Shown here one piece after another: positions 3,602 through 40,241 of a stretch of 64,000 nt of DNA. The stretch is from NCBI GenBank assembly GCA_024641705.1, contig JAHECO010000001.1:195897-259896 (forward strand), written 5' to 3'. A program made the position numbers and the translations under genes. Position 1 is the stretch's first letter. Each line of letters starts with the position of its first letter. The notes below the pieces were generated by a model, which saw only the letters and a list, made by a program, of their open reading frames with translations, was not told the origin of the DNA and ran no database searches. Source of the DNA: Candidatus Kryptoniota bacterium (GTDB lineage Bacteria; Bacteroidota; Ignavibacteria; Kryptoniales; JAKASW01).

Positions 3602-4418
3602 TCAGGCAGTGAAACTGAGAGAAGTGGTGAATGCCCAGACGACCGTAGCGCCTCTCGGGTCGCAGCCGCATAAGATTACAGTGGTGAGCGGAAAGGGCGG
3701 CGTTGGGAAGAGTAACATCGCGCTGAACCTGGGACTGGCTCTTGCGCGCGACGGTGCCCGGGTACTCCTGGTCGACGGTAATGTCAACCTCTCGAACCTC
3801 GATATCCTTTCCGGCGCGTCTCCCTCGTACAGGTTGTTCGACGTCATAGATGGGAATGTCAGGCTCAAAGATGCCGTGGCCGAGATATCCAGAAACGTCT
3901 TCCTACTGGCGGGTTCGTCGGACGGGCGGCTCAAGAGACTGACATCCGGAGACGCGGCGACTTTCTTCAAGGAGGTAAGACTGACGGAGCCGGCCTTCCA
4001 CTATGCCGTCATCGACACGGCGGGCGGGATCGTGCAGGAATCCATTTCTCTGGCCCTCCTTTCGGACGAAGTCCTCGTCGTCTCGACGCCGGAGCCGACC
4101 GCCGTCATGGATGCCTACGTGCTGGTCAAGGCTATAAAGAGAATTAATTCCAGCGCGGACCTGAAACTCCTCATCAACAGGGCAAGGGACGCCGAAGAGG
4201 CGGAAGAGGTCAGGACCAAGTTCGATCTGGTGAGCGAGCATTTCCTGAACATGAAAATCGATTACGCCGGATTCATCCCCTGGGATGAATCGGTCGAAAA
4301 GGCGGTCAGCGCGCAGTCGCCGTTGATGAAGGAATTCCCGGAATCGCAGTCGTCGAGGGCGCTGACGGTCATCGCGGACCGCATATTGTCTAAAGGATCT
4401 TTCGGAAAGAAGAAATAA
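3594..4418 (+). CDS. flhG: MinD/ParA-type ATPase FlhG (FleN/YlxH)
   Basis: Deviant Walker A SGKGGVGKS; position after flhF; 8-nt overlap with flhF. Confidence 0.85.
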   Translation: MLDQAVKLREVVNAQTTVAPLGSQPHKITVVSGKGGVGKSNIALNLGLALARDGARVLLVDGNVNLSNLDILSGASPSYRLFDVIDGNVRLKDAVAEISRNVFLLAGSSDGRLKRLTSGDAATFFKEVRLTEPAFHYAVIDTAGGIVQESISLALLSDEVLVVSTPEPTAVMDAYVLVKAIKRINSSADLKLLINRARDAEEAEEVRTKFDLVSEHFLNMKIDYAGFIPWDESVEKAVSAQSPLMKEFPESQSSRALTVIADRILSKGSFGKKK

Positions 4419-4687
4419 TGGACAAGCTTGGGACTAGAATACCGATGCTCATCTTTTTCCTGGGAGTCGTCTACTTCGTTTCGAACGGGTTCGACGTCGT
4501 CGACGCCGTCATCAGGGCATTCATGCTCGCCTTCGGCGTGGCTCTGATAATCCTCGTCCTTACGATGTTGCTGATGTTCTTCCTCACTCTCGAAAAAAAC
4601 AGATCCGAAATCATGAAAGTCTCCGCAGCCGAGGAACACGGCCAGAACGTGTCGCTGCACGAGAAGAAAGTTGAGATGCAGGCATGA
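4418..4687 (+). CDS. Small predicted two-TM membrane protein, unknown function
   Basis: 89 aa with two hydrophobic stretches (IPMLIFFLGVVYFV; AFMLAFGVALIILVLTMLLMFFL). TAATG overlap with flhG and ATGA overlap with fliA suggest it is translated. Confidence 0.45.
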   Translation: MDKLGTRIPMLIFFLGVVYFVSNGFDVVDAVIRAFMLAFGVALIILVLTMLLMFFLTLEKNRSEIMKVSAAEEHGQNVSLHEKKVEMQA

Positions 4688-5412
4688 GTAATCAGGAGCT
4701 CTGGGAGAAATACGCCAGGCGCCGCACCGCGGCTGTAAAAAAGGAACTCGTCCTTTCCTACATGAACCTGGTCAAATTCGCGGCGCGCGCGATCAACCTC
4801 CCGCCCAAGTGCGTGTTCAGCAGCGAAGACCTGATGAGTATAGGAATAATCGGGCTCGTGGAAGCGATCGAAAGGTTCGACCCCTACAGAGGAGTGAAGT
4901 TCGAGACGTTCGCCTCGCAGAGGATCCGGGGAGTCATGCTGGACGAGATCAGGAAGGTGGACTGGCTCCCGCGATCGGTCCGAGACAAGTACAAGAAGGC
5001 TTCGAAATCCCTGAGCAAGCTGGATATGAACAGCATTAACGGCGAGAAATACGCGCGGGCGATCAACATGACCATCAGTGAGTTTGAGCAGATAAAAGGT
5101 TATCTCGCGAATTCCGAGGCCGTATCGCTTACGAGAACGATCGGCGAAGACATGACTCTCGAAGACGTCATCGGCGGCGACAGCGAAGTCGTCGAGCAGT
5201 TCGAAGAAGAGGAACTGCGCGAACAGCTCGTCGCAAGACTGAAAAAGCTCCCCGAGAGAGAACGAATGGTCATTACACTTTACTACTACGAGGAGCTCAC
5301 GTTCAAGGAAATCGGGAAAACTCTCGGGATCAGCGAGTCGAGGGTGTCACAGATACACTCTGAAGTGATCTCGAAGCTCAAGGATTCAATCAGGAAGGTT
5401 GTTGAACTATGA
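4684..5412 (+). CDS. fliA: Flagellar sigma factor FliA (sigma-28)
   Basis: Region 2 (GIIGLVEAIERFDP..G.KFETFA..RIRG) and region 4 (LPERERMVITLYYYEELTFKEIGKTLGISESRVSQIH); flagellar context. Confidence 0.9.
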   Translation: MSNQELWEKYARRRTAAVKKELVLSYMNLVKFAARAINLPPKCVFSSEDLMSIGIIGLVEAIERFDPYRGVKFETFASQRIRGVMLDEIRKVDWLPRSVRDKYKKASKSLSKLDMNSINGEKYARAINMTISEFEQIKGYLANSEAVSLTRTIGEDMTLEDVIGGDSEVVEQFEEEELREQLVARLKKLPERERMVITLYYYEELTFKEIGKTLGISESRVSQIHSEVISKLKDSIRKVVEL

Positions 5413-6575
5413 TAGGGGTCGGACAATTGACTGACAGGTTACTAAATATAAAAGACTTGCCGACGTTCCCGACGACCGCACTCGAGGTTATGCGTCTTGC
5501 CAGCGATTCCGACAGCAGTGCGGCGGAACTGGCGAGAATAATTTCGAAGGATCCGGCACTCGCTACGAAGATACTCAGGGTGGCGAATTCACCGTACTAC
5601 AGCTTTGCGAGAAAGATCTCAACCGTCGAGTGGGCGATAGTCGCCCTCGGCTTCGAGACGCTTCGGGAATCGGTGCTGTCGCTCACGCTGATCGACCTGT
5701 TCAGGGGAAGTGCCATGAAGCAGTTCGATCCCCGGAAGTTCTGGAAGCATGCGATAGACACGGCGACGGCAGGCCGTTCCCTCGCGAGAGAGCTGAAGTA
5801 CAGGATCCCCGGTGAAGCGTATGCGGCCGGACTCCTGCACGACATAGGAACGCTGGTCCTCTACAGGTATTTCCAGGAGGACTTCGAGGAGATAAACAGG
5901 CTGATTAACGAAGAGAATATGCAGCCCTCGCAGGCAGAGGTGGTCGTTACCGGCACCACGCACGGCGAGGTCGGAGCGTGGCTCGCTTCGAAGTGGAATT
6001 TTCCTTCTTATCTCGTCGAAGCGATACAGTTCCGTCATACACCCGCCTTCGCGGAGGTCAATCCGGAATTGACCGCGATAACTCACGTCGCGAGCCTCAT
6101 TGCCTCCTGCACCGGTTACTCATGCGCCGACAAGCCGTTGAAGTTCGACATGGCGGCAGTGCAGCTGATTGGGATCGACAAACTCGGCGTTTCCGTGACT
6201 GCCCTCGCCGACAAGTACATCGGCGATGATGCGTCGACTCTCGTCAAGGTCAAGATACCAATGACGGACTACTTGCCGGGTGCAGAGCCGCATGATGCCG
6301 GCAATGAACCCGCGCCCGAGCCGCCGGAGGAAGTCGACGACGGCACACTCAAAAGATTTTTCAAGGACGCGATCAAGCTCCTCCCATCGACGGAGAGGCT
6401 CGTCGTTACATTGAAGCTTTACGAAGGGCTGGAATTAAGACAGGTCGCCACCGTCCTCGGCTACGAGGAGGTAAGGGTGGCGGAATACTACAAGAATGCG
6501 ATCGGTGTCCTCCAGCAAATGGCAGAACGCGCAATCTTAACAAACAGGTTGGACCAATGGAAAATGAAATACTGA
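5409..6575 (+). CDS. HDOD-domain protein with a C-terminal sigma-70 region-4-like HTH
   Basis: HDOD hallmarks (LPTFP..A..V..L......S..ELA.II..DPAL..KILR.ANS.YY; GLLHDIGTLVL). Residues ~313-373 (nt 6345-6527) read LLPSTERLVVTLKLYEGLELRQVATVLGYEEVRVAEYYKNAIGVL, a sigma region 4.2 signature. Confidence 0.8.
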   Translation: MIGVGQLTDRLLNIKDLPTFPTTALEVMRLASDSDSSAAELARIISKDPALATKILRVANSPYYSFARKISTVEWAIVALGFETLRESVLSLTLIDLFRGSAMKQFDPRKFWKHAIDTATAGRSLARELKYRIPGEAYAAGLLHDIGTLVLYRYFQEDFEEINRLINEENMQPSQAEVVVTGTTHGEVGAWLASKWNFPSYLVEAIQFRHTPAFAEVNPELTAITHVASLIASCTGYSCADKPLKFDMAAVQLIGIDKLGVSVTALADKYIGDDASTLVKVKIPMTDYLPGAEPHDAGNEPAPEPPEEVDDGTLKRFFKDAIKLLPSTERLVVTLKLYEGLELRQVATVLGYEEVRVAEYYKNAIGVLQQMAERAILTNRLDQWKMKY

Positions 6576-7417
6576 AGGAAAAGGTACAGAATATAATTCA
6601 GCTTCCGGCGCTGCCGACGATTGCAGTCGAGGTCGCTTCCCTGATAGACAACCCGAACACCAGCGTGTCGAAACTGACGCAGGTGATTTCGGCGGACCAG
6701 GTTCTGACGGCGAAAGTGCTGAAGATCGCGAATTCTCCGTTCTACGGATTCCAGCGCAGGATATCGACGCTCGATTTCGCGATAATGGTGCTAGGCTTCG
6801 ATTCGCTCAAGGAGATACTCATAAGTGTCTCCCTCATAAGCTCGTTCAAGAAGAAGCAGGACAAGTACTTCGATTCGAGGGAATTCTGGGAACACTCGCT
6901 CGCGACAGGAATCGCCGCCCGTACCCTTGCCAGACAGCTCGGCTACAGGATAAGCGGCGAGTCTTTCGTCGCGGGGCTGATACACGATATCGGGATACTC
7001 GTGACTCACCAGTACTTTCACGACGATTACAAGCGGATTGTCGACGCCGTAACGGAGGGGAAATCGACTTTCCAGGACATGGAGCAGGCGGTATTGTTCG
7101 CCACGCATGGAGACATCGGTGCCTGGCTCGCCGAGCGGTGGAACCTGCCGGACCAGTTGATCGAGGCGATAAAATTTCACCACAAGCCGGGGCTTGCGGA
7201 GAAGAACGTGCAACTGACGGCGTTGATTCACTTCGTCGATTACCTCTGCCATAAACTGGGCATAGGGGCTCTTTCGTACGAGAAAGTCGACAGTTTTGAT
7301 CCGGAGGCGCTTAAGATCCTTAACATATCGGAGGCGGAGATCACACAGGCGTTCTTCGATTCCTTCGGTTCCAAACTGCGCGAAGATCTTGAAAGGACAT
7401 TTGTAAACATTATCTGA
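6557..7417 (+). CDS. HDOD-domain protein (paralog of the preceding gene, no sigma4 tail)
   Basis: LPALPTIAVEV..L....NTSVSKL.QVIS.DQVLTAKVLKIANSPFYGF and GLIHDIGILV motifs. Confidence 0.85.
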   Translation: MENEILKEKVQNIIQLPALPTIAVEVASLIDNPNTSVSKLTQVISADQVLTAKVLKIANSPFYGFQRRISTLDFAIMVLGFDSLKEILISVSLISSFKKKQDKYFDSREFWEHSLATGIAARTLARQLGYRISGESFVAGLIHDIGILVTHQYFHDDYKRIVDAVTEGKSTFQDMEQAVLFATHGDIGAWLAERWNLPDQLIEAIKFHHKPGLAEKNVQLTALIHFVDYLCHKLGIGALSYEKVDSFDPEALKILNISEAEITQAFFDSFGSKLREDLERTFVNII

Positions 7418-7438: not shown

Positions 7439-8842
7439 ATGAAGAAGGACGAAATGATAGGGCAAGAGATAAAGAAAGACGACCAGAAACTCGGCGGTCA
7501 GAACGCTGCCGATGCCATAGAGCGTTTCATGGAGACGCGTGAGAGCTACATACGAGCTCTTGAAACGACCATCCAAGTGCTCAAGGGCAAGGTGGATTTG
7601 CACGAGAGGACCGAGACCAGCATAAAGCAGTCGTTGGACGAAATGGTCGCGATGCAGAGGCTGGCAAACACCATAAGCATAGCCACCGACCCCGTCTCCG
7701 TTTTCGATTCGCTTCTCGAGCTTACCCGGCAGGTGATACCGGTTGAGGAAAGCATGCTTTTCGAAGTGGGTGATTCGAGGTCCCGGACCAAACCTTTCCT
7801 GCAGACATGCTCCGACTACATGATTACAGCGTCCCAGCATCTTCTGGAGGAAGGGATCCTGGACTGGGTTATCGAACAGAAGAAGACCACAGTCGTACCT
7901 GACCTGAACACTTCAGTGGGAGAAGCGGGGGAGAGAAATTTCGTCGTGGTCCCGGTGGTTCTCCGCAACGAAGCGATCGGGGTTTACATCATACGTACCG
8001 AGAAAGTGCGCAGGGCATTCTCCGATCACGAGCTTGCGCTTCTCGGAATCCTGGCAAACCAGGCCGCGATAGCGATGGAAAATCTTAGGAACATCGACAG
8101 GCTGGTGAAAGCGGCGGACGAACTGAAGAAGTCGCAGGCCCAGATGTTGCAGGCGGCGAAGCTAGCCTCGTTGGGCGAACTCGCCGGCGGCATCGCGCAC
8201 GAGATCAACAACCCCCTGCAGATACTCCTCGGACACATCGCCCTTCTCCAGCAGGGGAAGGACATGGAGCACAGGGTCGAGATAATCCGAAATCAGGTCC
8301 AGAGGATAGCCCAGATTACGCGACAGCTCGTTTCGTTTTCGAGAAGCGTGCCCGAAGAACTGGAGCATGAACTTGTGAACGTGAACTGGGCGGTCAACGA
8401 GATCATAGCGCTGGTCGATTACCAGTTCAAGAATCGCGGCATCGAGTTCGACCTGCGTTTCTCGGAGGAAATTCCGCCGCTTGATTCCAACAAGAACTAC
8501 CTGCAGCAGGCGTTCCTGAACCTGCTTATAAACGCAAAGGATGCGATGCCGAGCGGAGGCAAGATGCTCATCGCGACGGAATTCGTGAACGGGAAAATAC
8601 AGATCCGCTTCACAGACTCCGGCACCGGCATAAAGAAGGAAAACCTTACGAAGATATTCGAGCCTTTCTTCACGACGAAAGAACCGGGAAGAGGAACGGG
8701 GCTCGGCCTGCCTATCACGAGAGGGATCGTGAGAAAGTTCGGAGGCGACATGAAAGTGGACAGCGTCGAAGGTCGCGGGACGACGTTCACGATGGTGCTT
8801 CCGGTAAAGGGTGTGGAAACAAGGAACGGAGGGATAAAGTAA
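7439..8842 (+). CDS. Cytoplasmic GAF-domain sensor histidine kinase
   Basis: No TM segment. GAF-like central region, H-box GIAHEINNPLQ, N-box LLINAKDAM, G1 DSGTGI, G2 GTGLGL. Confidence 0.85.
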   Translation: MKKDEMIGQEIKKDDQKLGGQNAADAIERFMETRESYIRALETTIQVLKGKVDLHERTETSIKQSLDEMVAMQRLANTISIATDPVSVFDSLLELTRQVIPVEESMLFEVGDSRSRTKPFLQTCSDYMITASQHLLEEGILDWVIEQKKTTVVPDLNTSVGEAGERNFVVVPVVLRNEAIGVYIIRTEKVRRAFSDHELALLGILANQAAIAMENLRNIDRLVKAADELKKSQAQMLQAAKLASLGELAGGIAHEINNPLQILLGHIALLQQGKDMEHRVEIIRNQVQRIAQITRQLVSFSRSVPEELEHELVNVNWAVNEIIALVDYQFKNRGIEFDLRFSEEIPPLDSNKNYLQQAFLNLLINAKDAMPSGGKMLIATEFVNGKIQIRFTDSGTGIKKENLTKIFEPFFTTKEPGRGTGLGLPITRGIVRKFGGDMKVDSVEGRGTTFTMVLPVKGVETRNGGIK

Positions 8843-9513
8843 TGCTTGGAATGCTGTTGGCTTTGCTGTCCGATACGACAGCCGTGAACATAAGGGCCCT
8901 CGTGACGCAGGACATCGATCGCGCCACTCTCAAGTCTGCCGCGGCAGCGAATCAGAGTTTCGCGGAACGCATCTTCGGGATCTCCGACTTCGTCCTGATC
9001 GTCGAGCTCGCCATGATCCTTGCGATGGCGGTGCTCCTCGTCGCGCTTATCGTGCGGGCGAGAAGGCTGATGAGAGAGCAAAGGCGGAAGATCGACTCCG
9101 CGCAGCGCATGAACGTGAAACGTCCACCTGCCATATCAAGAACGCAGATCGAGAGGATATTGAACCAGATAGCGAGCGAGAAGGTGAAAATGGCAGACAT
9201 GGCCGGAGGCGACTACTTCATCGACCACAACGGCAGGCTCGATTCCGGTGCTGCCGTTCACGAGATGGCCAGGACACACGGGATGGAATCGGAACGGCTC
9301 AACTTTGCAATCAACTACGCTTCCCAGCACGCGAGGCAATCGGGCGCCAAATTCAAAGAGGCCTTCGCACTCGTTACCGAGGATTCCGACCTCAACGTGC
9401 TCGCGAGACAGCTTAACATGGGAAAAGGCGAACTCGAACTCATCCTCGCACTCAAGCGAAGCAAGATTGCAAACTCGAGGACCGCGACGGGAAACCGGGG
9501 AGGTCGGCGATGA
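8842..9513 (+). CDS. Hypothetical single-TM protein inside the flagellar operon
   Basis: 223 aa with one hydrophobic helix (FVLIVELAMILAMAVLLVALIV). TAATG overlap with the kinase gene and ATGA overlap with flgF. No family recognised. Confidence 0.5.
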   Translation: MLGMLLALLSDTTAVNIRALVTQDIDRATLKSAAAANQSFAERIFGISDFVLIVELAMILAMAVLLVALIVRARRLMREQRRKIDSAQRMNVKRPPAISRTQIERILNQIASEKVKMADMAGGDYFIDHNGRLDSGAAVHEMARTHGMESERLNFAINYASQHARQSGAKFKEAFALVTEDSDLNVLARQLNMGKGELELILALKRSKIANSRTATGNRGGRR

Positions 9514-17932: not shown

Positions 17933-18633
17933 TGCGAAAGAAACACGCCGGAGAGCACGACAATCTCGAAAGGTGGCTCCTCACCTACGCCGACCTGATC
18001 ACTCTGCTTCTCGGGCTCTTCGTGATACTCTACGCGAGCTCCCGGGTGGACATGAAGAAGTACAAGGCAGTCATGTCAGCTTTCGAGAACGTCTTCGGCG
18101 GCGGACCCAGCCAGGGCGCGCTTTCCGGTGAGAATGGCATCATGTCGCAGCCCGCTGAGAATCCCGGGATGAGAGAATCCCGGTCGATGGAGCGGAAAGT
18201 GAAGGCAGCCGTGGGCGATGCTTTGAAGAAGGGCGGAGCCATGATCACCGTCGACGAGCGCGGCGTCACCGTGCACTTCCTTGAAAAGTTCATGTTCGAT
18301 CCAGGGGAGGCCCGAATAAGAACGGAAGCCCTGCCTGTGCTGGACACGCTGGGTTTCCTCCTTTCATCGGTGCCGAACCGCATAAGGATCGAAGGGCATA
18401 CGGACGATACTCCTATCCACAACTCGGAATTCCCGTCCAACTGGCACCTGTCGGTTGCACGTGCGTTGAATGTAGGTTATTATTTATTGCAGCATTACCC
18501 TATCAGGCCGGAGAAAGTGGCAATTGTCGGCTATGGAGAATTTCACCCTCTTGTTCCGAACGACACTCCGGTCCACAAAGCACAAAACAGGAGAGTGGAC
18601 ATTGTCATACTCAACAGCATCACGAAAGACTGA
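17929..18633 (+). CDS. motB: Flagellar stator protein MotB (OmpA-like C-terminal domain)
   Basis: N-terminus ERWLLTYADLITLLL.LFV (plug/TM with the conserved Asp). C-terminus IRIEGHTDD.P......SNW.LS..RA and NRRVDIVIL. Confidence 0.9.
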   Translation: MMRKKHAGEHDNLERWLLTYADLITLLLGLFVILYASSRVDMKKYKAVMSAFENVFGGGPSQGALSGENGIMSQPAENPGMRESRSMERKVKAAVGDALKKGGAMITVDERGVTVHFLEKFMFDPGEARIRTEALPVLDTLGFLLSSVPNRIRIEGHTDDTPIHNSEFPSNWHLSVARALNVGYYLLQHYPIRPEKVAIVGYGEFHPLVPNDTPVHKAQNRRVDIVILNSITKD

Positions 18634-18646
18634 GGAGTCTATAGAG

Positions 18647-19045
18647 GTGAAATCGAAGCTCGTGACCAAGCAGTTCGGCGAGTTGGAATTCGACGAGAGC
18701 ATCGTGTATCATTTCCCGAACGGTATCCCGGGTTTTGAAGAACTTCATAACTTCATTATAATAGACGATAAAGACACCGAGCCTCTGAGGTGGTTGCTGT
18801 CGACGGACGACCCGAACGTCGGCCTTGCACTGCTCGAGGCTTCTCTGGTTGCGCCTGAGATTTACCGGGAATTGTCTGCGGAAGACGGTTCCTCCACCGC
18901 CTTCGCGGTGGTGGTGTTGCGCCGGGATCCGGAGCCCATTACGGCAAACCTCAAAGCTCCGATTGTACTCAACCATGCTTCGAAATCGGGCAGACAAATA
19001 GTTCTTAATTCGGACAGGTATTCCACGGAATACAAAATCAATTGA
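18647..19045 (+). CDS. fliW: Flagellar assembly factor FliW (CsrA antagonist)
   Basis: FGELEFDES.VY.FP.GIPGFEEL..F.II......PL.WL.S..DP.V.L. GTG start at 18647 preceded by GAGGAG; the ORF-track N-terminal extension overlaps motB. Confidence 0.85.
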   Translation: MKSKLVTKQFGELEFDESIVYHFPNGIPGFEELHNFIIIDDKDTEPLRWLLSTDDPNVGLALLEASLVAPEIYRELSAEDGSSTAFAVVVLRRDPEPITANLKAPIVLNHASKSGRQIVLNSDRYSTEYKIN

Positions 19046-19060
19046 CCATGGAAGGCAAAT

Positions 19061-19342
19061 ATGTTAGTCTTGACAAGGAAGTTAGGCGAAGTAATCAAGA
19101 TTGGCGACAGGATTAAAGTAGTCGTCGTATCCGTTGAAGGCGGGAGTGTCAAGCTCGGGGTGGAAGCCCCCGACGAGATCCCTGTCCACAGGGAAGAAAT
19201 ATACCAGAAGATAGCGTCGGAGAACAAAGCGGCATCCGCCCAGATCGACAGGGAGAAGGCCAAGACGCTTAAGAACATCCTCCCGAAGTCGGATCAGGCC
19301 GGGAAGAAGGGCGCTGCAGGGATCGGGGAAAAAAATGCCTGA
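19061..19342 (+). CDS. csrA: Carbon storage regulator CsrA with an extended C-terminus
   Basis: MLVLTRK.GE.I.IGD.I.V.V..V.G..VKLG.EAP..I.V.REEIY. Confidence 0.9.
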
Positions 19343-20051
19343 AGCGGTACCCAGGTCGGTCCTCGTTATCGACGACACGAAGATAGTCCAGCGGTTCGCC
19401 GAAGATTTCTTCAAGCGACTCAAGCTCAACGTATTCCTGGCCTCGGACGGTTATGAGGGGTTACAGGCTGCCCTCTCGACGAAACCCGACCTCGTCTTCC
19501 TCGACTTAATGATGCCCCGCCTGGATGGCTTCAAGACTCTGCAGGTGATGAAGTCTAACGAGTTAACGAAGAATATACCGGTAATCGTAATGACCGCATA
19601 CTCGGACAGGATAAACGTTGTATCGGCGAAGAAACTCGGGGCGGCGTCAGTGATCACAAAACCGCTCAGCGAGGAGGTGCTTCTCCGCAAGTTGAAGCAG
19701 GTCTTCGGCGAAAAATTCGTGAAGTCCGTCCTGCCGGCGGATCCGAAAGCGAAAGAGAACCCGTTCGGCGTAAACGAGGAGGAATACGGCGATGTCGTGC
19801 GCGGCATGGTCGAGGAGTTTGTGAAGTTCTTCTCGGAACAGGTCGACCGGCTCGAGACCGCGGTGCACAACGAGGATGTTGAGGTTGTACGGAAAATCAC
19901 ACACAATATCCGCGGGACCGGCGGGTCCTTCGGGTACGATGAGGCGACCACACTCGCGACCCGCCTGAATCAGACTGTCCACGCTTCCCCTGTCAACTGG
20001 CGGGAAGCGGAGGAACTTGTGGTCCAGTTGAAGAATAGGCTTAAAAGATGA
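19335..20051 (+). CDS. Response-regulator receiver domain fused to an HPt phosphotransfer domain
   Basis: REC motifs (VLVIDD...; [13 protein letters not shown]; PVIVMTA). The C-terminal HPt signature is [16 protein letters not shown]. 8-nt overlap with csrA. Confidence 0.8.
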
Positions 20052-20431
20052 AAGCTCTTGTTGCAGACGATGTCCCGATGATCAGAAAACTCGTCGAGTT
20101 TCACTTGAAGCAGATCGGGTTCGATATCTCCAACGCGGCAGACGGCGCCGAGGCGCTCATGCTCGCCAGTAATTCTAAGTTCGACCTGATACTCCTCGAT
20201 ATCATGATGCCGGAGATGGACGGCCTGGAAGTCCTGCGCAAGGTACGCGCCGGATCGGTCAATAAGGAAACTCCCGTCATTATAATGACGGCGTACGGAG
20301 ATTCGGCGAATGTAAGGAAAGCCGTCGAATACGGCGCCAACGATTTTATAGTTAAACCGGTGGAGCAGGTGTCGTTCCGGAAGAAGGTTATCGATGCCGT
20401 CAACAGCAAGAAAGCAGAAAAGGAGAAATGA
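20048..20431 (+). CDS. Single-domain CheY-like response regulator
   Basis: ALVADD.., DLILLDIMMPEMDG, PVIIMTAY, K at FIVKP. ATGA overlaps on both sides. Confidence 0.85.
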   Translation: MKALVADDVPMIRKLVEFHLKQIGFDISNAADGAEALMLASNSKFDLILLDIMMPEMDGLEVLRKVRAGSVNKETPVIIMTAYGDSANVRKAVEYGANDFIVKPVEQVSFRKKVIDAVNSKKAEKEK

Positions 20432-21948
20432 AGCTCTCCCTCTCGATGATTGTGAAGAACGAAGAACGGTTCCTGCCGGGCTGCCTTGAAAGCGTGACGG
20501 GACTTGTCGATGAGATCGTCGTGGTGGACACGGGGTCGACGGACAGTACCAGGGAAATCGCAGCCGGCTTCGGTGCGAAAGTGTTCGACTTCGAATGGTG
20601 CGACGACTTCTCGGCCGCAAGAAACGAATCCCTCAGGCACACCACCGGCGACTGGGTCCTTTACCTCGACGCCGACGAGAGAATCTCGCAGGTGTACCAT
20701 AAGATGATCCGTAAGATGATGGCCGGAGGCGAGGGGGATGCTTTCCTTCTCAACCTGAAGAGCAAGATCGGCACCGCCGAGGATTCCCAGTATCATCTCG
20801 TCTCCTACCCCAGGTTGTTCAGGAAACTCGCCGGCGTACGCTTCACCGGCAGGGTCCATGAGCAGATCACGAGCTCGCTGAACCAGGTCCGGGCAAGGAT
20901 CGCCCCTTCGGATGTAATCGTCGATCACCTCGGCTACGCACAGGATGATGATGTTATACTCGAGAAGGCCCGGCGCAACTACAGCCTTCTCCTGGGGCAG
21001 GTGGAGCGGAGAGAGAACTACGGCTATGCCCTCTACCAGCTGGGTCAGACGGAGGTCATCCTGGGCGAAACAGAGAAGGGCCTGAGTCGTCTTCGCGAGG
21101 CGCTCGCCGCCGGTGGTTTCGGGAAATCAGTCGAGGCGTCCATCCAGGGTATCATCGCGGAAAACATGTTGAAGAATGGGGACGAGGAGGCTGCTCTCGC
21201 GGCGTGCGACAAATCGCTTGCAGCCGCTCCGCAACAGGCTTTCGCAGTGATACTCAAAGGCGACATATACATGAAGCTCGCGAGATATGACGAAGCCGAG
21301 AAGGCCTTTGCGGATGCGTTGAAACGCCACGAAGGAGGCGTCTCCGACGGCAAGGCGGACACTGCGATCGAACCTGTTTTTCCGACAGAGGTGCTCTACT
21401 CCAGGCTCGGCCGCGCGGCCTCTCTGGCCGGAGACTGGCCGGTCGCCGCTTCATTTCTAGGGAGAGCCGCGAAAGAGAAGCGACGGCCGATGAGCGTCGC
21501 CGCCTATTTTGATGCGCTGCTCCGGCTTAAATCGTATGAGGAAGTACTGAGGGCAGCGGATGAATTCAGCGATTTCGAAAATGAAGATTGGTATCTCAAG
21601 CTTGTCGCATCGGCGCTTATCGAGACTGAAGACTTTGCCAGAGCCGCAGGACTTCTCGGCAGGGTCGTCGATCACGATCAGGCATCGTTGTCGAGTCTCG
21701 CGAACTGCAGGATGAAAACCGGTGACCTTGAAGGATGCGAGTCGGCATTCAACCAGGCGATCGCTCTCGGGTACAACGATCCGCAGGGATTGGAACTCCT
21801 CGGGCTCGTGCAGTTCAAGCTTTTCAAGTTCCGGGAAGCGGCCGAGACTCTGACCGGAGTCCTTCAAGCAGAGCCTTCAAACCAGCGGGCAATGAAATTC
21901 GTCCAGGCTGCCAGGGCGCAGATCGGGACGCAAGCGCTGGGCAGGTAA
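20428..21948 (+). CDS. Family-2 glycosyltransferase fused to TPR repeats
   Basis: N-terminus LSLSMIVKNEE..L..CL.SV....DEIVVVDTGSTD.T..IA..FGA.V..F.W.DDFS.ARN; C-terminal ~330 aa is TPR-like. Confidence 0.8.
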   Translation: MKLSLSMIVKNEERFLPGCLESVTGLVDEIVVVDTGSTDSTREIAAGFGAKVFDFEWCDDFSAARNESLRHTTGDWVLYLDADERISQVYHKMIRKMMAGGEGDAFLLNLKSKIGTAEDSQYHLVSYPRLFRKLAGVRFTGRVHEQITSSLNQVRARIAPSDVIVDHLGYAQDDDVILEKARRNYSLLLGQVERRENYGYALYQLGQTEVILGETEKGLSRLREALAAGGFGKSVEASIQGIIAENMLKNGDEEAALAACDKSLAAAPQQAFAVILKGDIYMKLARYDEAEKAFADALKRHEGGVSDGKADTAIEPVFPTEVLYSRLGRAASLAGDWPVAASFLGRAAKEKRRPMSVAAYFDALLRLKSYEEVLRAADEFSDFENEDWYLKLVASALIETEDFARAAGLLGRVVDHDQASLSSLANCRMKTGDLEGCESAFNQAIALGYNDPQGLELLGLVQFKLFKFREAAETLTGVLQAEPSNQRAMKFVQAARAQIGTQALGR

Positions 21949-29098: not shown

Positions 29099-29665
29099 AT
29101 GCCTGATATGCTGACGCCCTCGAAGTGGGTCCAGAGTTATGCCGATTCGCTCTTCGGTTTTGCGATCGCCAGAACTGGCGACCGCGATATCGCGAGAGAT
29201 CTCGTACAGGAAACGTTCCTCTCCGCACTCGAGAACCGCCGCACGTTCAGGGGAGAGAGCTCGGAGAGGACCTGGTTGTTCTCAATCCTGAAGAACAAGA
29301 TCATCGATCACTATCGCAGGAAGGGGAGTGAGAGGACGGTTTCCGTTTCCGGCGACGCCGAAAACGCGGACGAAAGCTATTTCTTCGATGAGGTGGGACA
29401 CTGGAAGTCTACGCTCCTCCCGACCGACTGGGGGAGCGCCCCGGAAGAAGCAAGGTCCAGCGAGTTCCTGGAAACGCTTCAGAAATGTCTTTCCAGGCTC
29501 ACCGCGCAGTGCCGGGGCGTTTTCACTCTGAAGTATATCGACGAGATGGAATCGGACGAAATCTGTAAGGAACTGGCGATCTCGCCGTCTAACTACTGGG
29601 TCATAATTCACAGGGCGAAGCTTCTGTTGAGGAATTGCCTTGAAAAGAACTGGTTGAACGCCTGA
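29099..29665 (+). CDS. ECF-type sigma-70 family factor
   Basis: Region 2 (ARDLVQETFLSA......F.G.S...TWLF.ILKNKI.D.YRR) and region 4 (C.GVFTLKY.DE..SDEIC.EL.IS..N..V..HRA...LR). Confidence 0.85.
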   Translation: MPDMLTPSKWVQSYADSLFGFAIARTGDRDIARDLVQETFLSALENRRTFRGESSERTWLFSILKNKIIDHYRRKGSERTVSVSGDAENADESYFFDEVGHWKSTLLPTDWGSAPEEARSSEFLETLQKCLSRLTAQCRGVFTLKYIDEMESDEICKELAISPSNYWVIIHRAKLLLRNCLEKNWLNA

Positions 29666-29674
29666 GGAAGAGAA

Positions 29675-29944
29675 ATGTCGCAAGGGTCTCACCGTAAGCT
29701 TTTTATAACATGCCAGGAGGCGACCTACCTCATCTCAAAGGACGAGGTATGGGCGACGGGGCTTCTCGACAAGCTGAAGCTTGCCGTCCACCTGATGATA
29801 TGCGAATTCTGCCGGCGCTTCAGCAAGCAGACGAAGATCATCGAGAGACAAGCCCGGCACCTGACTCCTGAAGCCCGCCTTTCTGAGGAGGAGAAAGGGC
29901 TTATGGAAGAGGCGATAAAGACGAAGGAGAATGGGTTGCAGTAA
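29675..29944 (+). CDS. Small TM-less ZAS-type (zf-HC2) anti-sigma factor candidate
   Basis: 89 aa directly after the ECF sigma. C13-x25-H39-x3-C43-x2-C46 matches the ZAS pattern; no hydrophobic segment. Confidence 0.6.
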   Translation: MSQGSHRKLFITCQEATYLISKDEVWATGLLDKLKLAVHLMICEFCRRFSKQTKIIERQARHLTPEARLSEEEKGLMEEAIKTKENGLQ

Positions 29945-39251: not shown

Positions 39252-39278
39252 TTCCGGGCACTGCGAGGTTGTTCTGGG

Positions 39279-39434
39279 GTGTCACGGTCCTACCTTGACA
39301 CTGGAACGCTCGTCGTAGCTCGGCTCAGCTTCACGACGGTTTGCCACCGCACTATCGTCATTCCCGCGCAAGCGGGAATCCAGAACAAAAGCGACTTTCT
39401 GGTCCGGCTTAGCGTCACGGATTGGTCCGTGACG
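39279..39434. repeat. Cluster of four closely spaced REP-like hairpins
   Basis: GTGTCA/TGACAC (39279-39301). CGTCGT/ACGACG (39311-39338). ATTCCCGC-GCAA-GCGGGAAT (39360-39379, 8 bp with a GNRA-type loop). CGTCACGGA-TTGG-TCCGTGACG (39413-39434, 9 bp). Confidence 0.5.
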
Positions 39435-39805
39435 GCCTGAGAATACAAAATATACATTTGGTACAGCTGTCGGGGTACACATCGTTGCCGAGAAGGAGAA
39501 TCCCGTCAATTCTCTATGGAGGACCTGGATGTACTCGGCGGTTGGAGGAGGCCCCGGGTATGCCAGTGCGCTCGTGCTGAGCCGGGTATACAAGACAGTC
39601 CCTAGTGAAGGTGCCGTGCTCCTCCTGTGCCCGCTTGTTGGTTCGATGGTCTATTCGCTTTTCATCGCCGACTGGCCGGGCGAGAACGGCATCGCCGCCG
39701 CATTACCGGCCCCGGTTCGGACTAGTCCAGGTGTGTCTGCCGGTCTGCTCAAGCCGCCGGCGACTTTCTGTGTCAATTTGATTACCATCGAACTTTGATG
39801 AATCG

Positions 39806-39834
39806 TTGACATTGCAGCCGGGCCGGGGTATATT
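39806..39834 (+). promoter_or_regulatory. Near-consensus sigma70 promoter in front of the ORF6N'/RloC-like cassette
   Basis: TTGACA (39806-39811), exactly 17-nt spacer, TATATT (39829-39834). Confidence 0.5.
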
Positions 39835-39920
39835 CGTTTCAAATGTCCCACTGGCTACGGATCAGGGAAGGAGGCGGGATCTTTCGGAAAGGTTGGATAA
39901 GGACTCGGAAGAAAAAGGAA

Positions 39921-40232
39921 ATGTCAGAGGGTTCACGACGTAATGCACGATCACTGGTCCCCGAAGGGCATATCGAGGAGCGTATTTACTTCATGAGAGG
40001 TGAGAAGGTCATGCTGAGCACAGATCACCGGGCCCGTTTTCCGGACGATTTCCTGTTCCGACTGACGAAGGATGAGTACTCTGGTTTGACATCGCAAATT
40101 GCGATATCGAACAGAGCCAGCCAGGCAGGGTTTGGTCAGGAGACTGCTGCATGTCCACTTACGCCCATTAGGTTTCAGAGGCTTGAAGTCACAGAATACG
40201 ACTTCAATGATGGACATAAGAAAATCTGGTGA
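39921..40232 (+). CDS. ORF6N-domain (KilA-N-like) protein with an internal deletion, possibly decayed
   Basis: RIYFMRGEKVML and RFPDDFLFRLTKDEYSGLTSQIA match the two conserved ORF6N blocks, but the ~20-aa segment normally between them is missing and the C-terminus is divergent. ATG 39921 follows AAGGAA. Confidence 0.5.
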   Translation: MSEGSRRNARSLVPEGHIEERIYFMRGEKVMLSTDHRARFPDDFLFRLTKDEYSGLTSQIAISNRASQAGFGQETAACPLTPIRFQRLEVTEYDFNDGHKKIW

Positions 40233-40241
40233 GGGTGAATC

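Follow-up and report, generated by a model that had tools for sequence, protein, structure and literature searches.

The gene that immediately follows fliA in a flagellar cluster of Candidatus Kryptoniota bacterium encodes a protein in which, as confirmed here, an HDOD domain is joined by a disordered acidic linker to a sigma region 4 of four helices (sigma-4). The protein may be a two-module regulator, the output of which would be a decoy of sigma-28 region 4 and probably not a reader of the -35 element. The gene (5409..6575, plus strand; 388 amino acids (aa) plus stop) lies in a stretch of 64,000 nucleotides (nt), hereafter the window, corresponding to positions 195,897-259,896 of the forward strand of contig JAHECO010000001.1 (GCA_024641705.1), and was defined by its open reading frame (ORF), by Pfam matches and by a protein-cluster search. 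The reading that we favor, at a probability of about 40%, is that of a sensor-coupled sigma-4 decoy, which would act by protein contacts, most likely by titrating an anti-sigma-28 factor. It draws on domain identities, conservation, synteny, decay of the DNA-reading surface and retention of a hydrophobic groove, all of which are observed.

The tail of the protein is a region 4 of the sigma-28/WhiG type, comprising helices 4.1 and 4.1b and a helix-turn-helix (HTH) (residues 313-370; 6345..6518, +). A first-pass annotation, made from the letters of the window, had already read this ORF as an HDOD domain followed by a FliA-like region 4, and profiles, BLASTP, hhalign, AlphaFold2 (AF2) models and Foldseek all lead to the same assignment. 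On Pfam alone the picture is mixed: the HDOD domain scores far above its cutoff, while Sigma70_r4, matched to residues 321-368, reaches 18.5 bits in the full protein and 21.8 bits in the tail alone, in both cases below the cutoff of 24.1, which makes the first-pass annotation's condition of a significant sigma70_r4 match a borderline case by this test. The Pfam r4 and r4_2 models match all 25 family tails, with best E values of 8e-7 and 2.5e-7, and Sigma70_r4 scores 35.4 bits, above the Pfam cutoff, in P0149, a member of a second clade described below. The NCBIfam FliA_WhiG model aligns its positions 153-222, out of 224, to residues 302-371 (E 5e-8; 32.9 bits vs a cutoff of 189.6). A profile built from the 25 tails and searched against PDB sequences retrieves WhiG (7.8e-10), E. 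coli FliA (8.7e-8), P. aeruginosa FliA (3e-7) and Aquifex sigma28 (5.6e-5), other sigma classes, such as SigF and the extracytoplasmic function (ECF) factors, being far weaker.

Comparison with the FliA of the same organism gives a consistent result: BLASTP aligns the two without gaps, as in the hand alignment of the first-pass annotation, with 18 identities over 55 positions (33%, E 2e-9), and hhalign assigns a probability of 97.4% (E 1.6e-11) to 58 ungapped columns. The AF2 model of the tail (predicted local distance difference test score, pLDDT, of 89) contains four helices, at positions 2-12, 17-28, 33-40 and 44-67 of the tail; each of the top 45 PDB matches found by Foldseek is a sigma factor whose region 4 forms the aligned part, with a probability of 1.0, query TM-scores (TMq) of 0.62-0.77 and a root-mean-square deviation of about 1 A. 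In the structure-based alignment, the tail is 40-44% identical to WhiG. No match to Sigma70_r2 was found in the fusion protein, and a full-length FliA/WhiG match is likewise absent: having neither region 2 nor region 3, the protein is not a sigma factor, and neither productive binding to core RNA polymerase (RNAP) nor promoter melting is possible for it.

A search of clusters covering 5.8 billion proteins produced 41 full-length clusters related to the fusion protein (382-398 aa, 60-100% identity, 98-100% coverage), the named sources of which are metagenome-assembled genomes (MAGs) labeled 'Candidatus Kryptoniota' or 'Bacteroidetes bacterium'. Scanning GTDB species with the tail resulted in the identification of 20 species, in 19 of which the ORF is uninterrupted (387-398 aa). 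The junction with fliA is ATGA in 17 of these 19 species and GTGA in the other 2, and in each of them the fusion gene is followed by a tail-less HDOD paralog and a GAF kinase. Complete Kryptoniota chromosomes, such as OY969888.1 and OY969800.1, are among the carriers of the gene. In the window, the ATGA overlap reported by the first-pass annotation can be read directly in the sequence (5409..5412, +), the ATG lying at 5409 and fliA spanning 4684..5412. Mean pairwise identity within the clade is 0.79 for the sigma-4 segment, 0.75 for the HDOD domain, 0.61 for the helical extension of the latter and 0.19 for the linker. No other part of the protein is better conserved than the sigma-4 segment, a sign of strong purifying selection and not of a dead remnant.

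These figures bear on the least attractive of the alternatives, according to which the fusion would be an assembly or frameshift artefact, or else a functionless remnant of a duplicated fliA 3' end. A decayed copy does exist: in the twentieth species (locus L025; OY969815.1, L025:3872-4237) an in-frame internal deletion has left a 121 aa product, in which the first ~40 aa are joined to the sigma-4 tail. The flagellar cluster of this locus appears to be decaying: it has no GAF kinase left, and in the stretch that follows, up to about 6000, only motB- and fliW-like fragments are found before a TonB-type receptor. Yet 41 independent full-length clusters, an intact ORF in 19 of 20 GTDB species, a tail more conserved than any other segment, and a second clade with the same architecture and position make this explanation vanishingly improbable, and an artefact or frameshift is refuted by the conservation data. 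The two separate genes with an intervening stop, which the first-pass annotation had considered for the relatives, are not what these loci carry. A recent duplication of the adjacent fliA 3' end was similarly rejected, the tail being 33% identical to region 4 of its own FliA and the tails of the two clades 31% identical to each other.

The second clade emerged from an exhaustive hidden Markov model search over 1.84 billion representatives, the best 150 matches of which include only one full-length 50%-identity cluster, one fragment and P0149, matched in two stretches; weaker fusions ranking lower than these 150 would have escaped this search. P0149 (347 aa) contains HDOD and Sigma70_r4, and lies in a locus with the order fliA, HDOD-sigma4, HDOD, GAF kinase, transmembrane (TM) protein, flgF. 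Seventeen clusters of 342-374 aa, all pre-annotated with PF08668 and PF04545, make up this clade; they are 27-33% identical to the window protein, have no acidic linker, and are separated from fliA by a gap of 13 nt instead of overlapping it. Their database names are 'HDOD domain-containing protein [Bacteroidota bacterium]' at NCBI and, for some JGI entries, 'RNA polymerase sigma factor (sigma-70 family)'. Since the two clades share both architecture and position, the architecture must be older than the Kryptoniota clade. The fusion is restricted to uncultured lineages of the Fibrobacteres-Chlorobi-Bacteroidetes (FCB) group. No general linkage of HDOD genes to fliA was found: in other phyla, the closest HDOD-only homologs are surrounded by unrelated genes, one of them being adjacent to cheX. 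Two further HDOD proteins, encoded outside the window, were noted: P0204 (349 aa), with a probable Fis-type HTH (HTH_8, 18.7 bits vs a cutoff of 22), and P0121 (602 aa), with two tandem HDOD domains.

To compare surfaces, 25 Kryptoniota tails and 13 second-clade tails (38 in all) were aligned with the true FliA proteins encoded in five of these loci. In P. aeruginosa sigma28, base-specific contacts to the -35 element are made by S224 and Q228, and the Q228A substitution cripples transcription (PMC12784957). All five FliAs keep the S-E-S-R-V/A-S/F-Q-I-H motif, including Gln at the Q228 position. The recognition helix of the Kryptoniota tails reads instead E-A/V-R/K-V-A-E-Y-Y-K-N, and 23 of the 25 have Glu in place of Q228; S224, R225, S227 and Q228 are thus represented by A/V, R/K, A and E, respectively. 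In second-clade tails the DNA-facing positions are hypervariable and often occupied by Asp or Glu: D, E, G, H, Q or S is found at the Q228 position, and the R225 position, basic in 24 of the 25 Kryptoniota tails, is D, E, S or T in many of them. The tails have also lost two lysines which are invariant among the FliAs and align with tail residues 344 and 348, and the net charge of the HTH ranges from -5 to 0 in all 38 tails, compared with 0 to +3 in the FliAs.

The hydrophobic groove behaves differently. FlgM contacts on sigma-4 of P. aeruginosa involve L187, I191, L200, A203, L204, Y206, E209 and L210, and the L204R substitution lowers the affinity for FlgM about 190-fold while leaving motility nearly normal (PMC12784957), indicating that the known role of L204 is in anti-sigma binding, and not in folding, DNA or core contacts. 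In the tails, the residues found at L187, I191, L200, A203, L204 and L210 are F, I, L, T/A, L and L, respectively: of these six hydrophobic FlgM-contact positions, five keep a hydrophobic residue in all 38 tails, the sixth, A203, being Thr in Kryptoniota and Ala in the second clade, and L335, the equivalent of L204, is invariant. The E209 position is Gly. Judged from this alignment, the tail appears to have lost its DNA-reading surface but kept the groove in which a partner helix could bind, a retention which gives indirect support to the decoy idea. Identity between the two clades is 31% for the tails, against 56% for the region 4 of genuine FliAs; such fast divergence fits a release from DNA and RNAP constraints, together with co-evolution with a fast-evolving partner.

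Sigma-4 is a bona fide DNA-binding fold, as the Foldseek matches confirm, and the protein could in principle be a one-component transcription factor, in which HDOD senses and the sigma-4-derived HTH binds -35-like boxes or a new operator, repressing or activating flagellar or other genes. The recognition helix of the Kryptoniota tails is indeed conserved in its new form, with the basic R225 position kept in 24 of 25, and another HDOD protein, the above-mentioned P0204, ends in a Fis-type HTH, although its score falls below the Pfam cutoff. The substitution of the base-reading Gln by Glu, the hypervariable and often acidic DNA-facing positions of the second clade, the loss of two FliA lysines and an HTH of negative or zero net charge throughout the 38 tails argue in the opposite direction; moreover, a conserved operator predicts shared reading residues across clades with the same operon, and the tails are only 31% identical. 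We regard this explanation as rather unlikely. For the same reasons (Gln replaced by Glu or variable, lysines lost, acidic HTH), the occupancy of class-3 flagellar -35 boxes, one of three mechanisms suggested by the first-pass annotation, comes out as the least likely of the three.

The retained groove would equally suit a different ligand. The flap-tip helix of the RNAP beta subunit is the universal partner of sigma region 4, as seen in holoenzyme structures, and the tail, which also keeps the C-terminal stretch of the FliA 3/4 linker, might occupy it, so that the region 4 of FliA, or that of another sigma factor, would be displaced or blocked and -35-dependent initiation altered. A lone sigma-4, however, deprived of the dominant contact between sigma-2 and beta-prime, would compete poorly with whole sigma factors; its effect would not be specific for FliA, at odds with the strict linkage to fliA; and fast inter-clade divergence is not expected for a partner as conserved as the flap. 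A beta-flap binder is, on balance, distinctly unlikely.

The position of the gene suggests still another possibility, namely that the protein replaces FlgM as a direct anti-sigma-28, its extra sigma-4 binding FliA, for instance by docking in trans on those surfaces of sigma-2/sigma-3 which are hidden under FliA's own region 4 in the compact inactive state, until a signal perceived by HDOD lifts the inhibition. The gene lies directly 3' of the sigma gene and overlaps its stop, a downstream and overlapping position which is typical of sigma/anti-sigma pairs, and flgM is missing from its usual place before flgN. No case in which a sigma-4 domain inhibits a sigma factor in trans is known to us, which counts against this explanation. 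In the compact inactive state of sigma28, sigma-4 does pack on sigma-2 and sigma-3 (PMC12784957); E209, which in that state bridges R82 of sigma-2, is however Gly in the tails. We consider such a direct anti-sigma unlikely.

Our preferred reading, the sigma-4 decoy, can be formulated as follows. The N-terminal HDOD domain, with an intact HD-type di-metal site, would be the signal-receiving part, and the C-terminal four-helix domain would retain the sigma-4 scaffold and its hydrophobic helix-binding groove. In sigma-28, this groove accommodates the C-terminal helices of FlgM, and holoenzyme structures show the beta-flap tip helix bound in the corresponding groove of sigma region 4. The fusion protein, co-produced with FliA, would compete with FliA region 4 for the ligand of the groove, the likeliest being an anti-sigma-28, and this competition would set the amount of free FliA available for late flagellar genes. 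The input would be whatever the HDOD module, the paralog without a tail and the neighboring GAF kinase sense. Within this scheme, what the ligand and the signal are and in which direction regulation works are inferred; the logic would be that of the PhyR/NepR/EcfG partner switch, based on sigma-factor mimicry, applied to the flagellar sigma. The position of the fusion gene after fliA, fixed in two clades, was counted in favor of this reading. Its fully specified version, a partner switch in which a metal-containing HDOD domain exposes or hides a sigma-28 region-4 decoy, capturing an anti-sigma-28 (or the flap) and so coupling an intracellular signal to late flagellar expression, is put forward as a tentative and rather doubtful proposal.

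Several points weigh against the decoy. The residues of the groove are also part of the general sigma-4 architecture, which makes their retention weak evidence. As the first-pass annotation had stated for the operon, flgM is missing: no Pfam or NCBIfam match to FlgM (PF04316/TIGR03824) was found among the genes and small intergenic ORFs of window 1-20.4 kb, nor is FlgM present in the precomputed Pfam lists of six related loci, L001-L006, and if the genome carries no anti-sigma-28, a decoy would have nothing to titrate. PhyR mimics both sigma-2 and sigma-4, here only sigma-4 is present, and affinity for an anti-sigma wrapping around three domains would be lower. A gene overlapping the 3' end of a sigma gene is in the classical position of an anti-sigma, not of an anti-anti-sigma, and the combination of HDOD with a Fis-type HTH in P0204 shows that HDOD may plausibly precede a DNA-binding output. 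Finally, all sequences come from MAGs and metagenomes.

The HDOD domain (residues 17-212; 5457..6044, +) matches PF08668 along its whole length (profile positions 1-196 of 196) with 213 bits, against a cutoff of 22.9 (E 3.7e-63), and the HD (29 bits) and TIGR00277 HDIG (32.8 bits) models exceed their cutoffs too. The closest relative of solved structure is 3HC1 from Geobacter (E 1.7e-33), in which two iron ions are held by five His and one Asp (PMC12075610). H114, H144-D145, H185 and H210 of the fusion protein are aligned to identical residues of 3HC1, the HD-type metal site being conserved; H114, H144, D145, H185, H210 and H226 are invariant in both clades, and residue 209 is Arg in the window protein and His in most relatives. 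Given this correspondence with a di-iron protein, the domain probably binds metal, and the description of HDOD as catalytically inactive, taken over in the first-pass annotation, is not a safe one here. HDOD proteins have been repeatedly tied to motility (PMC6543031), and one of them, SadB, works as a protein adaptor (PMC12075610), but their mechanistic role is stated in the literature as not yet established.

HDOD is followed by a helical C-terminal extension (residues 213-284; 6045..6260, +), for which AF2 predicts helices at 219-235 and 248-270 with pLDDT of about 84-93, and by the acidic, hypervariable linker (residues 285-312; 6261..6344, +). AF2 pLDDT falls below 50 at residues 274-309, thus predicting disorder between the two folded parts. 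Among the 25 members of the Kryptoniota clade the linker measures 23-37 aa, shares a mean pairwise identity of 0.19 and carries a net charge of -2 to -11 in every case; of the acidic and Pro-rich character attributed to it at first, acidity is therefore general, while richness in Pro is limited to the closest relatives. The negative charge may have a function, such as shielding the sigma-4 domain. The end of the linker is homologous to the end of the FliA 3/4 linker, the NCBIfam FliA_WhiG match starting at residue 302. Beyond sigma-4, a conserved C-terminal extension (residues 371-388, MAERAILTNRLDQWK.., 6519..6572, +) is found only in the Kryptoniota clade, the second clade and FliA having either no such segment or another one: the mean pairwise identity of the extension is 0.79, A375, I376, R380, L381 and K385 are invariant, and in the AF2 models the recognition helix runs on into it as far as residue 377. 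The AF2 model of the full-length protein, obtained from a shallow alignment, is only of moderate quality (pLDDT 67).

Among known systems, the nearest concept is sigma-factor mimicry, exemplified by PhyR, an anti-anti-sigma that operates in the general stress response of alphaproteobacteria and in which a signalling domain is joined to a non-functional copy of sigma domains, thought to act as a bait for a sigma-binding protein (PMC4814048, PMC4551977). As in PhyR, promoter reading is lost in the sigma-like part of the fusion protein and partner-binding surfaces are kept. PhyR, however, combines a receiver domain with a mimic of ECF sigma-2 and sigma-4, whereas HDOD is joined here to sigma-4 only, of the sigma-28/WhiG class, and in reversed order, the sensor being N-terminal. 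The NCBIfam PhyR model gives only an E value of 0.025, and neither Pfam nor NCBIfam detects a Response_reg match in the protein which, having neither a receiver domain nor a sigma-2 mimic, is not a member of the PhyR family. No cognate anti-sigma-28 was identified in the window cluster or in related loci.

With respect to FliA and WhiG, the anti-sigma factors of which are FlgM and RsiG, respectively, the tail is homologous to their region 4 and keeps the hydrophobic FlgM-contact positions, but regions 2 and 3 are missing, the base-reading Gln and its flanks are changed and a C-terminal extension is added. A full-length HDOD domain is common to the fusion protein and to other HDOD proteins (3HC1 of Geobacter, Cj0248, GsmR, SadB); SadB and 3HC1, whose domain make-up was checked, contain no sigma domain, unlike the fusion. 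Other regulators, such as T4 AsiA, gp33 and Rsd, work at the interface between sigma-4 and the beta flap rather than on DNA; they share neither sequence nor fold with the fusion protein and, instead of being copies of sigma-4, are ligands of sigma-4 or of the flap. According to the first-pass annotation, the domain combination is not known to have been described. In the parts of the literature that were accessible, no paper was found pairing HDOD with Sigma70_r4, and none of those naming both Kryptonia and flagella looked relevant; the combination is, however, already machine-annotated (PF08668 plus PF04545) in the second clade.

The genomic context is that of a large flagellar cluster, inside which the window starts, housekeeping genes being found from ~22 kb on. 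Its 5' part contains, in order, flhB (3' end), flhA, flhF, flhG, a gene for a small two-TM protein, and fliA; a regulatory insert follows, formed by the HDOD-sigma4 fusion, a second HDOD gene, a soluble GAF histidine kinase and a 223 aa single-TM protein. The order then continues with flgF, flgG, flgA, flgH, flgI, a flgJ-like gene, flgN, flgK and flgL and, beyond the latter, with motA, motB, fliW, csrA, and the genes for a REC-Hpt protein, a REC protein and a GT2-TPR protein. FliA itself (4684..5412, +; 242 aa) is a complete sigma-28, with regions 2 and 4: it scores 216.6 bits with TIGR02479 FliA_WhiG (cutoff 189.6), is matched by both Pfam Sigma70_r2 and Sigma70_r4, and has the canonical recognition helix GISESRVSQIH intact.

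The gene for the tail-less HDOD paralog (6557..7417, +; 286 aa, Pfam HDOD 219.7 bits) shares its first 19 nt with the 3' end of the fusion gene, and its product has 42% identity to the HDOD domain of the fusion. All loci contain it, and no gene of the fliA-HDOD-HDOD-kinase module is better conserved: identity to the window copy across species amounts to 75-96%, compared to 61-86% in the fusion protein and 66-88% in FliA. The paralog may form a pair with the fusion protein. Downstream of both HDOD genes, in L001-L005 as in 19 of the 20 genome loci, comes the gene for the soluble GAF-HisKA-HATPase kinase (7439..8842, +; 467 aa, Pfam). The conserved single-TM protein (8842..9513, +; 223 aa), which has no family assignment, closes the insert before flgF; its C-terminal part is weakly similar to DUF2802 (E 0.016) and DUF6115 (E 0.07), which are presumably found in flagellar or chemotaxis clusters, and a gene for a protein of 218-243 aa with no Pfam matches occupies the same position in L001 and L003-L005.

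On the other side of fliA, the small two-TM protein (4418..4687, +; 89 aa), placed between flhG and fliA, has no family assignment, its Pfam and NCBIfam matches being weak and of the TM type only. Start/stop overlaps are found on both flanks of its gene, the stop overlapping the start of fliA; a gene for a protein of 73-94 aa occurs in the same position in L001-L006, and a tblastn match was obtained in 20 of 20 genome loci. Unnamed small genes are located at the equivalent site of other flagellar clusters, Helicobacter HP1033 being an example.

A fliW-csrA pair is located inside the flagellar cluster, at window 18524-19342; from its presence, a partner-switch checkpoint at the level of flagellin probably exists in the cluster, although flgM was not seen. 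Flagellin, fliD and fliS were not seen in the annotated part of the window (about 1-34 kb). The sigma-28 promoter motif TAAA-N14-17-CGATA has 3 matches, vs ~1 expected, none of them meaningfully placed. The cluster ends, at 19335-21948, with a protein containing receiver (REC) and histidine phosphotransfer (Hpt) domains, a single-domain REC protein and a glycosyltransferase of the GT2-TPR type; the orphan GAF kinase (7439-8842) might have these REC proteins as partners. Elsewhere in the window, at 29099-29944, an ECF sigma factor of 188 aa is followed, 10 nt later, by an 89 aa ORF with an H-x3-C-x2-C motif (HLMICEFC), which looks like a zinc-binding anti-sigma, though it has no Pfam match. A region of ~1 kb, at 39252-40241, contains no long ORF, Rfam match, tRNA or repeats: Rfam and tRNA scans of the window found nothing, and no repeats were detected in the ORF-poor 39.2-40.3 kb interval.

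If the decoy reading is true, this would be, to our knowledge, the first sigma-mimicry system outside the ECF/PhyR family, extending sigma mimicry from ECF sigmas to the flagellar sigma, and it would provide the first defined molecular output for an HDOD domain, a widespread module (~48,000 cluster representatives at E <= 1e-3). The fusion acts as a 'Rosetta stone', pointing to sigma-28 control as one output of HDOD and offering a concrete binding assay. A region-4 decoy of sigma-28 tied to an HDOD sensor would surprise a specialist, and can be tested with synthetic genes. The comparison of decoy tails with genuine FliA region 4 from the same genomes separates DNA-reading from partner-binding residues, and the system may reveal how a checkpoint on late flagellar genes operates in a lineage lacking flgM at the canonical site.

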